Positions 3,361-40,074 of a stretch of 64,000 nucleotides of DNA are shown here, piece by piece. Numbering within the stretch: the first letter of the stretch is position 1; the number at the start of each line of letters is the position of its first letter. The DNA comes from a virus (lineage: Duplodnaviria > Heunggongvirae > Uroviricota > Caudoviricetes). The stretch is taken from the IMG/VR virus record IMGVR_UViG_2703718775_000013. One strand, written 5' to 3'. The position numbers and the translations under genes are program-made. The notes below the pieces were generated by a model. The model saw only the letters and a list, made by a program, of their open reading frames with translations. It was not told where the DNA came from and ran no database searches.

Positions 3361-3437
3361 TGGTGCCGATTAACGGGATCGAACCGCTGACCATTCGCTT
3401 ACAAAGCGACTGCTCTACCAACTGAGCTAAATCGGCA
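3361..3437 (-). tRNA. tRNA-Thr (anticodon UGU)
   Basis: Reverse complement TGCCGATTTAGCTCAGTTGGTAGAGCAGTCGCTTTGTAAGCGAATGGTCAGCGGTTCGATCCCGTTAATCGGCACCA; acceptor stem, T-loop GGTTCGATCC, anticodon loop TTTGTAA, encoded CCA. Confidence 0.75.
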
Positions 3438-3440
3438 ATG

Positions 3441-3527
3441 TGGTGGGGAGTGATGGAGTCGAACCACCCGAGTCGCAATGACAGTAGATTTACAGTCTAC
3501 CCCGCTACCCCTACGGACTAACTCCCC
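3441..3527 (-). tRNA. tRNA-Tyr (anticodon GUA), class II with long variable arm
   Basis: Reverse complement GGGGAGTTAGTCCGTAGGGGTAGCGGGGTAGACTGTAAATCTACTGTCATTGCGACTCGGGTGGTTCGACTCCATCACTCCCCACCA; anticodon stem GTAGA/TCTAC with loop CTGTAAA, long variable arm resembling E. coli tRNA-Tyr, 7-bp acceptor stem, CCA. Confidence 0.75.
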
Positions 3528-3532
3528 TAAAG

Positions 3533-3607
3533 TGGCGATGGTGGGTGGATTCGAACTACCGACCAGTTGGTTAACAGCCAACTGCTCTACCGCTGAGCTA
3601 CACCATC
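3533..3607 (-). tRNA. tRNA-Asn (anticodon GUU)
   Basis: Reverse complement GATGGTGTAGCTCAGCGGTAGAGCAGTTGGCTGTTAACCAACTGGTCGGTAGTTCGAATCCACCCACCATCGCCA; anticodon stem GTTGG/CCAAC with loop CTGTTAA, T-loop GGTTCGAATCC. Confidence 0.85.
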
Positions 3608-4272
3608 ACTTGCCGGGTACGTCTCCGGCGAGGGCTTCCACCTCCGTATGCTTTTCGGCGCACCGCGCCCTGGCTGCAATTCGGTAACAGGGGATGCATA
3701 ACCCTGGCTTCCAGCGTGATTAGCGCCTTCAGCATGACGGGATATACCCGTAAATTCGTGGAACTGTACCCAAAGTGCTGTTAAGCACCGCTGTTACGCT
3801 GAAAAGAAAACGCAACAGGAAAGGACGCTGACCAACAGATGGCCCCTTCTCGTTCATCTGGTTAATCACACCAGCGCCCTTACCTGTTGTGCCTCCCCGT
3901 TCCCTAATACACAGACGGGGACACTCTGCGGTCGATTTTTTGACGGGGGACGACTCATACCCCATGGCATCTGGCTTCTTAGGCCGCTACCATCATCAGA
4001 TCATCGTTTGCATTTACTTTAATGGTCAGTTTCTAAACCGCCGCAAAGTCGCTAACCATGACGAAAACCCTGAAAAAAACGCCCACCCGAAGATGGGCAA
4101 ACTGGACGCTCGTAACGCACTTCGGCGTTGCCACTTAGGCGCATGGTCAACCTGGCAACTCGGTGGTTTGTCTGGGAGGACTAGGCCCAGCCATGCTTAC
4201 CGCCGCGCCTGTCGCGGCTAACAGCTAAATCGCTCTATAAATCACGATTCATTGAGGTAATATTACACTAAT

Positions 4273-4289
4273 AAATTTATTAGAGCAAT
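4273..4289. promoter_or_regulatory. C1 repressor operator-like site (perfect match to reverse complement of ATTGCTCTAATAAATTT)
   Basis: AAATTTATTAGAGCAAT read directly; sits at the head of the minus-strand leader/tRNA/ban operon, analogous to the P1 ban-operon operator. Confidence 0.7.
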
Positions 4290-7200
4290 ATACCCAAAAC
4301 GTCATGAGCTACACCTCGAGTGTCCCCCTTACAAGACACAGAACGTCTGGCAAAAAGAGGTTCCACTCTGAAGCCACTGTCATGATAAAGCTCTCTGATG
4401 TTTGGCGCGCCACTGTTAGTAATGAGAACCTTTGCACCTCGACGATGAGCATCCGTCAACAGAGACACCAGGCGTTTTTGCTCTTCAAACTTAAAGTCAT
4501 GACCGGAATAGTTCGTGAATCCCTCTGTATTTGGAAGCGGTTCATACGGCGGATCGCAAAAGATGACATCTCCTTCTCCGGCAGCTTCAATCACCGCTGC
4601 AAAATCACCGCATACAAACTCAGACCGCCCTTCCGCACCGAGGAAGGCTTCCATCTCCTGTAATGGGAAATACGGAGTTTTATACTTCCCATAACCGACA
4701 TTGAACTCACCGGCCTGGTTGTAACGCGTCAATCCGTTAAAACAATGTCGGTTCAGGAACAAAAACGCCGCTGCGCGATGTAAATCATCATAGACTTGTT
4801 TGTTAAACGCATTCCGTACTGCCAGGTATCCTTCCTGTGTGTTGTAGTCCTGGAAGAAACGATGTGCCAGAGTGATAAGTGAATGCGCCTCGCGTTGCAG
4901 AGTCTTGTAAAAGTTAATCAGGTCAGCATTCACATCATTTAGCAGATTTTCCTGGTATCCGGCATTCATGAAGACAGCTCCGCCACCAACGAAAGGTTCA
5001 ATCAGGCGCTTCCCTTCTGGCAAATAGCGAAAGATTTGTTCCAGAACACCAAATTTTCCACCAGCCCATTTGAATATGGACCGTTCGAATTCTGCCGCTG
5101 GTTTAACTTTTCGCTCTTTTGTTTCACTTCCTTCTTTCTGCCGACATACGGCCTTAGTAATCCGATCGCCAATCCAGCGCATTACTGGTATTGCCATACT
5201 ATTGCCGATCGCTTTGTAACGCGGTCCGTCAGCTGCAAGCATTGCGGCCTCTTCTTCGCTTAAATCTGGATAGTGATTGTGCAGATATGCCAGTTCATCT
5301 GAATTAACTTTTTTACGCTTTTCCGTAGGGATCAACGTATGCCAATCAGGAAAACCTTGCAGCCTTTCACATTCGACAGGGGTAAGACGGCGCATTCTAC
5401 CGTCGCCGAGCAATACAATTGGTGCTTCATGGTTACATGTCAAAGTTGGTGCCGAATTATCGGTTTTTATCTCAGCCCCTCCTTGCCCATGTGCCATGGC
5501 AATTATGTTTGTATCATCGCAAGTTCTGATAGCGATGTTTGAAGTATATCTGGTAGTTTCCTTCCCCTCGCCTCTGCTCGGCGCAATATTCCGGCGCACG
5601 CCTTCGAACTCAAAAAGTACCGTTGCGGGATCGAGATCTGTTCGAGCACTTGCGACAACAAACACGCGTCGGCGTCGTTGTGCCACTCCGAAGTATTGGG
5701 CATCAAGGATTCTCCAGGCCACTTTTCGCTGCGGTCCATAAATACAACCACACTGCGGCCACTTTGGAACATGGCAACCGGTTTTGCCATCCCACCGCCA
5801 GAACGCGTTGCTTTTTCCTGATTCAGGTCGATCACCTGGTTCAAATGGCACATCTTCTCCAGCCAATCCGGCAAGGAAACATCCGAAGGCGTTATCTGCC
5901 GATGACAAGACTCCTGGGACATTTTCCCAGACGATAACGGCTGGTTTGAGAAATGACTCAGCCCGTTTGTCGTCAATTGCATTTGCAAGCTCCACATACT
6001 TTAAAGTTAGCGCGCCACGCTCATCATCAAGCCCACCACGTAATCCCGCGATACTGAATGCCTGACAGTTATGGACCACCGCACCATTGAGGATATAGGA
6101 ATGATCACCTTCGACTTCTATGTTGTATACAGTATCTAGGCCTACCGATTTAAACTCTTTGACTGTTCGTAAAAGCATTCCATGAGCCAATCTTGATTTA
6201 CGTGACAATTTCTGCGGGCAGATTGTTACCTGATAATAATTCCGTTGATTTACCACGCGATCCTCGATCACTTTTTTGGGCTCAACTTCAATAAAGCTGA
6301 CCGAAGAAACATAACCACAAGTCTGTGACAACCCCGCAACGCCCCAAGCAAGCGCAGAACTAACACTATTAATTCTAAATCCCGCTTTACCACTTGGTGT
6401 CCCATCAGTATCAAGATAGCCTTGTAAAAACACATGACGCAATGGATGCGACATCACCCATGCAGGGATACGCTTAGCATGGCTTAACTCGCCAAAATGT
6501 TCATTAAGCCAATTGGCATAACACGTATCATTCAAGGTTACTTTGATGCTCCCTCGGATTTCGCTTGCCACGGAAAATATGTTTTCTGGTATGCGGCAAT
6601 GAAACTTTCTCAATTTCTGGCAATTTATGCCAAAAACAACCGCCTTCTTAGATTTACCTCTCCATCTCCTAATATATCCATCGCCAACATAAGCGCCCGC
6701 AAGATACATAGCCTGTTCTTCAGACAAGAACCGAGAACAAATATCTGGAAATGCAATATTGAAATTAGTTAGAGCGCACCATTGATATCCCGGCATATCA
6801 CATGCTGCTCGCCATTCCGGTTCAGACAACAACTCTCTCTTAAAATATGTGCCATTTTTCCGGGTGTTTTGGGCTTTCCACCGAACAGCCAGGAAGGGAT
6901 GGTCATTGGTTGTTCTTATACCTAAAGGCTGCCCAACGGCATTAAGTAACCCCGTATTAGCTATTTTTGAACCAACTCTTTTTACTTGTTGTAACCGCCC
7001 GAGATGACTGACTACGTAATCACCAGGGCAAACATTTTCTATTGGTTTATAGCCATTTTTACAAAGAACCATATGCCCCGCGGTAAAACATGGTGTTCCC
7101 CCGACGAGCACGTCAGGGGATTCGATTTCCCCAGCCAAGACTTTTTTGGCAAGTTTTTTCATGTCGCCAAGGTTGGCAACATGGGGCCAGCGGAGCGCAA

Positions 7201-7321
7201 GAACGGCCGATGGAAAAGGCTCGATTTCAGCAAACCACGCCGGACGCATACCCAACGGTTCCCAGGCAATACTCGCGGCTTCAATTCCACTGCAAACAGA
7301 TCCATAGCACAGCTCTTTCAC
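4280..7321 (-). CDS. dmt: bifunctional DNA methyltransferase: N-terminal C5-cytosine MTase (interrupted by an intein) fused to C-terminal Dam-like N6-adenine MTase
   Basis: 1013-aa ORF. C5-MTase motifs: GGTP|...|CQAFSIAG (split motif IV), VIVWENVPG (ENV), QRRRRVF, GNSM. C-terminal domain has FxGxG-like EPFVGGGAV and DPPY. Start ATG overlaps rdgC stop (ATGA). Confidence 0.85.
6068..7090 (-). other. intein with LAGLIDADG homing-endonuclease domain (residues 78-418 of Dmt precursor)
   Basis: Starts with Cys (CFTAGHMVL, block A), block [11 protein letters not shown], two LAGLIDADG-type motifs [11 protein letters not shown] and [11 protein letters not shown]-terminal [21 protein letters not shown] followed by +1 Cys; excision rejoins GGTP + CQAFSIAG. 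Confidence 0.8.
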
Positions 7322-8223
7322 TGCTTAGCCTCTCCGCCAAGGGCATTTACCAGAGCATCAACCAGGCACGAAATTTCACTGGTCAACAGGAAGAAATCTG
7401 CGTCCAGTCGCTGCGCAACATCTTCACTATCAATATCAGAGTTCTGCTCAAGCAATTCATCCGCAAATTTGACGCTGGTAAGGCTGAAGTTATGGTCCAG
7501 TGTAAATTTAATGCGGTTCTGCCAGTCGAGTGCCAACTTAGTGACGAGCTTGCCAGCTTCCAGGTGTGTGGAAATTTCATCGCTTCCCAAATCCTGCTTT
7601 TTCACTCGGGCAATACCGCCATCCTCAAGCACTGCCTTAAGTTCTGCCGCATCCCCCATTTGAAATCCCTGTGGAGCACTACCATCACGTACCCAGTCGG
7701 TCAGCGTTAATTCAATGGGATTTTCAACACTCAGGGAAACAGCAGGAAGAGAACCCAGAGACTTACGCATAAGCGCGAGCATATCCTCTGCCTGCCGCGC
7801 GCTGGCATTGATATAGATACGTTTAGTTGAACCGTCGTAGATCGCCTGGATAACAGAAAACTTTGAAAAAGCCCGTGGCAGAAGAGAATGCAGAACTTCG
7901 TCTTTCAGGGAGTCCTTCTCTGTTTTCTTCAGTTTACGCGCTTGTTCTTGCTCAAGTTTTTCAATTTTTTCTTGAATAGCTCGCTGGATAACCGGCGGGG
8001 GAAGAATTTTTGTTTCGCGCTTTGCTTCAACAAGGATAAAACCATTTCCATGCATAGCGATAACTTCAGAATTATCACCAAATGGCGATACAAAACCGAA
8101 CTTGGCCATATCCTGACTACCGCATGGCGTGAAAAGGATCATTTTCTTTTTATCTTCTAAGTCGGTCAGATCCGCCTCACGAGAAAGTTTATAAATAGTA
8201 ATGTTTTTCCAGTGCTTAAACAT
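7318..8223 (-). CDS. rdgC: recombination-associated protein RdgC homolog
   Basis: From ATG at 8223: [16 protein letters not shown]...[17 protein letters not shown]...[24 protein letters not shown]...[30 protein letters not shown], collinear with E. coli RdgC; upstream ORF stop overlaps its start. Confidence 0.8.
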
Positions 8224-8572
8224 GTTGTAACCCTTGAATATCAACCACAGAAAGCTCGTCTTTGTAGAAAAAGGCCAGGTTGTGGCACCCCCTCGTTTGA
8301 GCGTATGAGCTGGGACCAATTTCGTTCTTCCAGACAAATGGCTTCAAATCCGTACGGCGAAGCATAAAAACGCGATTTATTCCGCTCTGATTCCCAATGA
8401 GGCAAAAGCCTTCTTTCACCTTGATAGCCTGCAAGTTGTCGAGTTCACCGCTGGTTACACGGCTATCGAACTCTTTGCGGCTTATTAGCTCCATCTGCAT
8501 CTGACGACTCCAAACAAATGCCCATTGAAGGGCGATGGCTGAATGGTACCGAAAATACGACATAAAAAACAA
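8216..8572 (-). CDS. hypothetical protein (first gene of rdgC-dmt operon)
   Basis: 118-aa ORF, stop overlaps rdgC start (translational coupling); start may be ATG at 8572 or 8563. Confidence 0.5.
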
Positions 8573-8588
8573 TATTTATTAGAGCAAT
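8572..8588. promoter_or_regulatory. C1 operator-like site (16/17 match)
   Basis: ATATTTATTAGAGCAAT at the 5' end of the minus-strand operon and in the divergent intergenic region. Confidence 0.6.
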
Positions 8589-24659: not shown

Positions 24660-24676
24660 AAATTTATTAGAGCAAA
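24660..24676. promoter_or_regulatory. C1 operator-like site upstream of kilA-repL (16/17 match)
   Basis: AAATTTATTAGAGCAAA about 70 bp upstream of kilA start. Confidence 0.65.
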
Positions 24677-26039: not shown

Positions 26040-26300
26040 ATAAACAACCTGCGACCCGCTGCTAAACAGGTGGCAGGACGTGACGGGGTTAGCAGACTGG
26101 CACTTACGAAACCAGCAGGCCGAAGCCTCCCCATCACGCCCCACCATAATTCGGGCGTAACGTGGTTTACGGACACAAAAATACCGCAATATCGGAAATC
26201 TGCGGTTGTCCGCGTAAGTATTCAGGCTGCTAAACCCGGTCGCAGAATTTGCTACGACGGCGGAACTATAAGCCTGAACGATTAAAAGGTCAATATGATG
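26040..26300 (-). ncRNA. c4-like antisense RNA region of immI (boundaries approximate)
   Basis: Leader between the operator and icd contains CTGCTAAAC twice (26059, 26226) and the complementary GTTAGCAG (26089) on the same transcript, the kind of antisense/target pairs described for P1 c4. Confidence 0.3.
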
Positions 26301-26331: not shown

Positions 26332-26348
26332 AAATTTATTAGAGCATT
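26332..26348. promoter_or_regulatory. C1 operator-like site at immI promoter (16/17 match)
   Basis: AAATTTATTAGAGCATT at the upstream end of the minus-strand immI leader. Confidence 0.65.
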
Positions 26349-39496: not shown

Positions 39497-40074
39497 TGAC
39501 ATTCAGAATGAGTGAACACTCACGGACCATAAAAATTTATAATCTACTGACCGGAACCAATGAGTTTATTGGTGAAGGTGATGCATACATTCCACCTCAT
39601 ACAGGTCTGCCTGCAAACAGTACCGATATTGCCCCGCCAGATATTCCGGCTGGCTTCGTGGCCGTTTTCAACAGTGATGAGGCATCGTGGCATCTCGTTG
39701 AAGACCATCGGGGTAAAACGGTTTATGACGTGGCATCAGGGGACTCGTTATTTATTTCTGAACTCGGTCCATTACCGGAAAATGTCACCTGGTTATCCCC
39801 GGAAGGGGAGTTTCAGAAGTGGAACGGCACAGCCTGGGTGAAAGATGCAGAAGCAGAAAAACTGTTCCGGATCCGGAAGGCGGAAGAAACAAAAAACAGC
39901 CTGATGCAGATGGCCAGTGAGCATATTGCGCCACTTCAGGATGCCGTAGATTTGGATATTGCGACGGAGGAAGAGGCATCGTTACTGACTGCATGGAAGA
40001 CATATCGGGTATTGTTGAATCGTGTTGATACAACAGTAGCATCGGATGTTGAGTGGCCAGTCGCCCCGCAATAA
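39496..40074 (+). CDS. U: tail fibre assembly chaperone (U/Tfa family)
   Basis: 192-aa ORF overlapping S stop; the ...[11 protein letters not shown]... segment resembles the conserved N-terminal part of Tfa/U proteins. Confidence 0.7.

Follow-up and report, generated by a model that had tools for sequence, protein, structure and literature searches.

Why should a phage-plasmid carry, between a small reading frame and the gene of a DNA methyltransferase, a homologue of RdgC, and what could such a protein contribute once lytic replication begins? The question was raised by a first-pass annotation of a 64,000-nucleotide stretch of DNA from a virus of the Caudoviricetes (IMG/VR record IMGVR_UViG_2703718775_000013; the whole stretch is referred to below as the window), which regarded the arrangement as unusual and suggested that the protein could modulate host recombination. 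With respect to the locus the answer is simple: it is the uhr-hrdC-dmt early operon of phage P1 under the operator Odmt/Op68, and as such it is already known. With respect to the protein, we consider it probable that this C1-repressed early operon of a P1-like phage-plasmid supplies, in the form of HrdC, an RdgC-like antagonist of RecA.

The operon and its control region

The gene identities, the overlaps between the genes, and the operator and promoter of the locus (Table 1) are those annotated for P1. The 2004 annotation of the P1 genome (GenBank AF234172 / NC_005856) lists uhr ('unknown protein function'; 65233..65517), hrdC ("RdgC family"; 65510..66415), dmt (a bifunctional methyltransferase; 66412..68676), the sigma-70 promoter Pdmt and a 'monovalent C1-controlled operator Odmt; corresponds to former Op68'. 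Gene order, the lengths of uhr and hrdC, the 8-nt and 4-nt overlaps and the operator are all the same in P1 as in the window, and the first two proteins are nearly so, with 298 of 301 residues of HrdC and 98.9% of those of Uhr being identical. At the DNA level, a 1.9-kb stretch of the locus is 98.1-98.3% identical to several P1 records, 96.6% identical to P7 and 99.9% identical to Escherichia phage vB_EcoM-Ro157c2YLVW (Ro157c2YLVW in the following), and over 4.5 kb the identity to E. coli plasmids, among them pO111_2 (NC_013370.1) of the O111:H- strain 11128, is 100%. The operon is carried here by a P1-like E. coli plasmid of a common type. Further landmarks of P1, namely the C4 antisense RNA and tRNA genes, are also present in the window.

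Table 1. Genes and control elements of the uhr-hrdC-dmt locus, in window coordinates
Feature	Position	Strand	Description
uhr	8500..8216	minus	ATG / TAA, 94 aa
hrdC	8223..7318	minus	ATG / TGA, 301 aa, without internal stops
dmt	7321..4280	minus	GTG / TAA, 1013 aa
dmt intein	7090..6068	minus	341 aa, residues 78-418 of Dmt; precise presence/absence relative to P1 Dmt
C1 operator Odmt (former Op68)	8588..8572	minus	monovalent; ATTGCTCTAATAAATAT, 16/17 matches to the consensus ATTGCTCTAATAAATTT
Promoter Pdmt	8543..8572	minus	placed by alignment to the P1 annotation
C1 operator Obanab (former Op72ab)	4262..4289		bivalent; two overlapping inverted matches with 0 and 2 mismatches

As the first-pass annotation had described, hrdC is embedded between the small reading frame and dmt with overlapping codons on both sides: the stop codon of uhr and the start codon of hrdC share 8 nt (ATGTTTAA), and the stop codon of hrdC and the start codon of dmt share 4 nt (GTGA). 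A Shine-Dalgarno-like motif is found 7 nt 5' of every start codon, reading GGAG before the ATG of uhr, AAGGG before the ATG of hrdC and GGAGAGG before the GTG of dmt, and translation of the three genes would presumably be coupled through the overlaps. The start of hrdC is placed at ATG 8223 because the P1 annotation and the onset of homology agree on it, alignments to both Pfam and E. coli RdgC beginning at residues 4-5 of the protein so started. A longer form of 339 aa, initiated at a TTG (7318..8337), was dropped, the frame being merely open upstream and the P1 annotation using ATG 8223. Two antisense ORFs on the plus strand (7004..7663 and 7090..7710) proved to be without support.

The operon is headed by a near-perfect C1 operator, again as first noted, and the interval originally singled out (7318-8588) extends exactly from the hrdC stop codon to the outer end of this operator. 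Its asymmetric 17-bp sequence is base-for-base that of the P1 operator at 65145..65161 of AF234172. Sites resembling the operator with at most three mismatches number eight in the 64-kb window, compared with a mean of 0.32 in shuffled sequences (two at most, with none of the 100 shuffles reaching eight), which argues that the match at Odmt is not due to chance. Pdmt, by comparison, matches the sigma-70 consensus poorly, too weakly to be picked up by a generic sigma-70 scan, and its position was therefore transferred from the P1 annotation (AF234172). Its -35 hexamer, TTGTTT (8572..8567), has one base in common with the operator and is separated by an 18-nt spacer from the -10 hexamer, TACCAT (8548..8543); an alignment of the control regions showed the operator and both hexamers to be unchanged relative to P1. 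Control of the P1 dam methylase by Op68 was reportedly the subject of a 1989 paper by Citron, Velleman and Schuster in J Biol Chem. At the opposite end of the operon, Obanab overlaps the stop codon of dmt and heads the next (ban) operon, where the P1 annotation likewise places it. No c1 gene was found within the 64-kb window; pO111_2, a complete plasmid with an identical copy of the operon, encodes a 'phage repressor protein C1'.

HrdC and the proteins encoded beside it

That the protein belongs to the RdgC family at all was the premise on which the first-pass annotation depended, and a profile search bore it out. HrdC scores 325.1 bits with the Pfam profile PF04381 (RdgC; cut-off 25, E = 5.4e-97) and matches it practically from end to end, since the alignment spans residues 5-298 of HrdC and positions 3-298 of the 298 in the profile. 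Comparisons over the whole length with the two RdgC proteins whose toroidal-dimer structures have been solved, those of E. coli (2OWL) and of Pseudomonas aeruginosa (2OWY), gave E values of 1.6e-111 and 2.4e-64, respectively, and 61.5% of the 296 positions aligned with the E. coli protein are identical. The residues that were shown by mutagenesis of RdgC to function in its fingertip, gate and horseshoe (Briggs et al.; PMC2965237) are conserved throughout, with all 10 of the mutation-tested E. coli residues being identical in HrdC: R97, K98, K100 and K101 of the fingertip, R118 and F120 of the gate, and Q212, E218, H222 and K227 of the horseshoe, the latter two elements forming the dimer interface. 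Judged by its sequence, HrdC is a full-length member of the RdgC family and what may be called a true, orthologue-like copy of RdgC. Because identity is high and the functional residues are completely conserved, an RdgC-like activity is the best inference for HrdC.

Much less can be said of Uhr. It has no match in Pfam, and in PHROG it matches only its own family, which is labelled 'nucleoside triphosphate pyrophosphohydrolase', a label for which support was not found. Relatives detected in a word-indexed collection of 5.8e9 proteins and by exhaustive phmmer search of 1.84e9 representatives were limited to close P1-like ones, with 65-69% identity or more, and to fragments. The AlphaFold2 model, built from a four-sequence alignment, is poor (pLDDT 58, falling below 50 in the C-terminal half), and Foldseek searches with it against PDB and BFVD returned nothing better than E = 0.015 or a TM of 0.5; matches to fragments of MTA/SAH nucleosidases (48 columns, TM 0.3) were rejected as noise. 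As far as these searches reach, Uhr is an orphan restricted to the P1 lineage.

Dmt combines, according to Pfam, a C5-cytosine DNA_methylase domain with an N6-adenine, Dam-type MethyltransfD12 domain. It had been described at the outset as containing an intein, and this too stands up to comparison with P1, whose reference Dmt (754 aa) has no intein and reads GTP-CQAFS where the insert is missing exactly. The insertion site, GGTP|C...VVHN|CQAFS, lies directly before the catalytic Cys of the PCQ motif of the C5-methyltransferase, so that this residue (C419) doubles as the +1 nucleophile of the intein. The insert contains the N-terminal C78, a block B motif (TNDH), two LAGLIDADG-type motifs and a C-terminal HN; the Pfam profile LAGLIDADG_3 is matched with 30.2 bits (cut-off 22.5), and Hint_2 and Intein_splicing are matched below their cut-offs (28.2 versus 28.4 bits and 18 versus 35.8 bits, respectively). 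By these motifs it can be taken for a real intein with a LAGLIDADG homing-endonuclease domain. The intein is a common polymorphism of the P1 lineage: it occurs in Ro157c2YLVW, in RCS47, in one P1 isolate (OP279344) and in 129 plasmid records, or ~22% of those carrying the operon, and in the three phages as well as in pO111_2 it belongs to the same operon. No relevant literature on inteins of P1-like dmt genes or of C5 methyltransferases from phages turned up in the corpus searched. A second difference concerns the variable region in the C5 half (about residues 583-643), which is shorter than, and unrelated in sequence to, that of P1 and of Ro157c2YLVW, whose Dmt of 1095 aa retains the long P1-type region; the short version, common to ~184 plasmids, may confer an altered cytosine target. 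Neither the intein nor the variable region bears on hrdC.

RdgC homologues and methyltransferase genes on mobile elements

Is it unusual, then, for RdgC to be encoded beside a methyltransferase on a phage-plasmid, as had been supposed? Here the original assessment has to be withdrawn. The arrangement is the canonical one of P1, P1-like genomes have uhr-hrdC-dmt at this locus too, and searches recovered the operon from 18 phage records and from 585 plasmid records, the latter mainly from Escherichia and Salmonella. Nor is RdgC on a mobile element unusual in itself, because tblastn detected homologues in 449 phage records out of 50,697, with Vibrio, Pseudomonas, Klebsiella and Escherichia among the genera represented, and homologues also occur in 1232 of the 72,556 plasmid records, some of which are conjugative plasmids from Pseudomonas, Citrobacter and Providencia.

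The pairing with a Dam-type methyltransferase gene is specific to one lineage, represented by P1, Cronobacter phage JK004 and phage D6. In JK004 the order is uhr, hrdC, an extra ORF of 191 aa and dmt, with Uhr being 63% identical; D6 has hrdC (51% identity at the protein level), orf64 and a Dam-type gene, whereas uhr is absent and the methylases are separate genes. In both phages the gene of a full-length RdgC homologue precedes that of a Dam-type methyltransferase, and codons overlap where hrdC meets its neighbours. None of five unrelated phages (AVIO78A, Kpn BU9, X29, CF24a and ICP1) has a methyltransferase gene beside its rdgC, the neighbours being small early genes or genes for SSB, replication functions or exonucleases, and the idea of a widespread RdgC-methyltransferase module was rejected on account of the missing linkage in these five.

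Might the linkage nevertheless reflect a partnership, in which a ring of HrdC aids Dmt on newly made DNA or shields hemi- or unmethylated P1 DNA? Such a role would explain why hrdC and dmt stay adjacent and coupled. It would be in keeping with the order, codon overlap included, that is shared by P1, JK004 and D6 and with its confinement to this lineage, and the GenBank note on P1 hrdC, in naming possible roles in replication, recombination 'or/and ...', leaves room for it. However, synteny inside a single phage lineage may be plain inheritance, strict adjacency is not kept where the 191-aa ORF of JK004 or the separate ORF of D6 intervenes, and the biochemistry of RdgC gives no pointer to methyltransferases. 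The order from hrdC to the methylase amounts to weak evidence of a functional link, inherited synteny being equally possible, and a partnership of HrdC with Dmt seems improbable. There is likewise only a slim chance that Uhr, HrdC and Dmt together make up a P1-lineage module in which the HrdC ring, perhaps along with Uhr, would steer DNA towards methylation or packaging, or protect it for either, and would not simply be a second host RdgC; what speaks for such a module is confined to the lineage-specific, codon-overlapping synteny of hrdC and the methylase from P1 to D6.

If no partnership is assumed, does HrdC matter to the phage-plasmid at all? In a genome-wide CRISPRi screen, uhr, hrdC and both dmt targets were non-essential for plaque formation by P1, suggesting that uhr and hrdC are dispensable in the laboratory (PMC10695390). 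Phages 673R5 and 813R1 have hrdC annotated as two ORFs ('RdgC1/RdgC2'), and a few plasmids match only residues 1-185 of HrdC; on the strength of these cases, its contribution may be small. Carried to its extreme, this line of thought would make hrdC a passenger, taken over from a host, all but neutral and without measurable contribution, with which the CRISPRi result as well as the split and partial copies would agree. That is hard to square, however, with the ~535 plasmid records that hold full-length HrdC at 95% protein identity or more, and with a 301-aa ORF whose complete RdgC domain has been kept out to D6, which points to purifying selection; we regard a mere passenger as very improbable. 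The split and partial copies fit dispensability, and the abundance of full-length plasmid copies speaks against it.

A course of events in the lytic phase and its known counterparts

How would the operon work if HrdC is, as we think, an RdgC-like antagonist of RecA? The regulatory logic is borrowed from P1. In the lysogenic (plasmid) state, C1 bound to the single operator Odmt would occlude Pdmt and keep the operon silent, silencing being expected from the base that Odmt and the -35 hexamer have in common. Inactivation of C1, upon induction or infection, would release one mRNA for the three genes, with translation coupled through ATGTTTAA and GTGA. In line with such control, hrdC and dmt are reported in a 2025 preprint to be induced during lytic development of P1vir, and to be induced less strongly when hfq is mutated (bioRxiv 10.64898/2025.12.28.696737). 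HrdC would most likely form a ring-shaped dimer around DNA, loaded through its basic finger and without sequence preference, and by competing with RecA it could reduce the assembly of RecA filaments, strand exchange and SOS signalling while P1 DNA is being replicated. Once its intein has been excised, Dmt would methylate GATC sites and a cytosine target.

The part assigned to HrdC follows what has been reported for RdgC, which binds DNA non-specifically, inhibits strand exchange by RecA and counteracts the RecFOR-dependent loading of RecA (PMC2965237; PMC11077077). Experiments on HrdC itself were not found in the literature, and what it does biochemically, as well as whatever bearing it has on recombination, we infer from the likeness to RdgC. 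That it modulates recombination during lytic growth, as the first-pass annotation proposed, is plausible, and the same speculation is already contained in the P1 annotation.

The discovery value of all this is small, given that gene, family, operon and operator are all in the P1 annotation and that the locus recurs in hundreds of plasmids. Several P1 proteins, among them Ref, HumD, Hot, Ssb and Ban, are homologous to proteins of the host's DNA metabolism or modulate these. A restraint of RecA by HrdC during lytic replication, if true, would be a modest addition to this picture.

Two known systems invite comparison. RexA of the temperate phage lambda, which acts in phage exclusion and in the lysis-lysogeny switch, is structurally related to RdgC and binds DNA non-specifically (PMC11077077). 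Could HrdC, by analogy, serve host interaction or exclusion, or counter a defence that depends on RecA or DNA damage? The RdgC fold and the DNA binding of RexA would lend themselves to such a view, and the frequency of RdgC homologues on phages and plasmids suggests some general benefit to mobile elements. Yet 61.5% identity to a housekeeping RdgC, with all functional residues kept, argues for the same rather than a diverged activity, and a C1-repressed operon would be off in the lysogen, precisely where exclusion would be needed, so that a RexA-like function must be considered highly unlikely. RexA, moreover, has no sequence similarity to HrdC and is expressed in the lysogen together with a partner, RexB. 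RdgC of E. coli, the model for the RecA antagonist that we favour, is the product of a chromosomal housekeeping gene, whereas hrdC resides on a phage-plasmid under C1 repression, and about 38% of the residues differ between the two proteins.

Split and partial hrdC entries and neighbouring frames

Several database entries represent hrdC, the gene of the RdgC-family protein HrdC, as less than one intact gene. It is annotated as split into RdgC1 and RdgC2 in two P1-like phages (ON470615.2 and ON470617.2), the match to HrdC is limited to residues 1-185 in some plasmids (NZ_CP030285.1, NZ_OY754417.1), and PHROGs 13439 and 21369 correspond to its two halves. What do these split and partial forms signify? 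They are consistent with hrdC being dispensable, or else with sequencing errors. In the window, the hrdC frame stays open for 38 more codons 5' of its ATG (7318..8337, minus strand), across the 3' end of uhr, and two single-member database proteins (P0010 and P0015) turn out to be Uhr N-termini frameshifted into this frame; these frameshifts are probably assembly errors rather than instances of programmed frameshifting.

Uhr is an orphan confined to P1-like elements. Exhaustive searches with it returned neither distant relatives nor a Pfam family nor a confident fold, and the RefSeq/PHROG name 'nucleoside triphosphate pyrophosphohydrolase' appears to lack support. On the other side of hrdC, two divergent relatives of P1, Cronobacter phage JK004 and phage D6, each carry an additional ORF; neither product matches Pfam, and that of D6 is annotated as 'cytosine methylase'.

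Features at and around the operon and in related phages
Feature	Sequence	Coordinates	Strand	Remark
tRNA cluster Asn-Tyr-Thr	window	3361..3607	-	
tRNA-Tyr(GTA)	window	3441..3527	-	within the Asn-Tyr-Thr cluster
Bivalent C1 operator (P1 Obanab / Op72ab)	window	4262..4289		at dmt 3' end
Dmt variable region, residues about 583-643	window	about 5392..5575	-	alignment with P1 and Ro157c2YLVW Dmt
LAGLIDADG intein in dmt, 341 aa	window	6068..7090	-	comparison with P1 Dmt
uhr	window	8216..8500	-	orphan gene
C1 operator site, 1 mismatch	window	24660..24676	-	operator scan
C4 antisense RNA with a1/b1 targets	window	26066..26271	-	
C1 operator site, 1 mismatch	window	26332..26348	-	operator scan
IS009	window	39839..40037	+	Rfam match
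Additional ORF, 191 aa	JK004 (L004)	5680..6255		between hrdC and Dam-type methyltransferase
Additional ORF, 226 aa	D6 (L003)	4875..5555		between hrdC and Dam-type methyltransferase

C1 operators

The final dmt codons and stop are overlapped by the bivalent C1 operator and the Pban promoters, so that the terminal part of one C1-controlled operon doubles as the control region for the operon that follows. Of the two further single-mismatch sites in the table, the second has as a close neighbour the C4 antisense RNA, together with the a1/b1 sequences that this RNA targets.

Dmt variants and the tRNA cluster compared with P1

The dmt intein sits directly ahead of the Cys that serves as catalytic residue in the PCQ motif of the C5-methyltransferase (GGTP|C...VVHN|CQAFS). 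It occurs in 129 of the 585 operon-bearing plasmid records and in phages Ro157c2YLVW, RCS47 and P1 isolate OP279344; no description of it was found in the searchable literature. Unlike the window, reference P1 and P7 have an intein-free dmt. In its C5-methyltransferase half, moreover, the window Dmt differs from that of both P1 and Ro157c2YLVW in having its variable region replaced by an unrelated sequence 82 aa shorter, a variant common to about 184 plasmid records. The variable region is presumably the target-recognition region of that half, and the variant may change the specificity of cytosine methylation. Reference P1 differs at the tRNA cluster as well, where it has only Asn and Thr, 2 nt apart, and lacks the tRNA-Tyr(GTA) that the window shares with Ro157c2YLVW.
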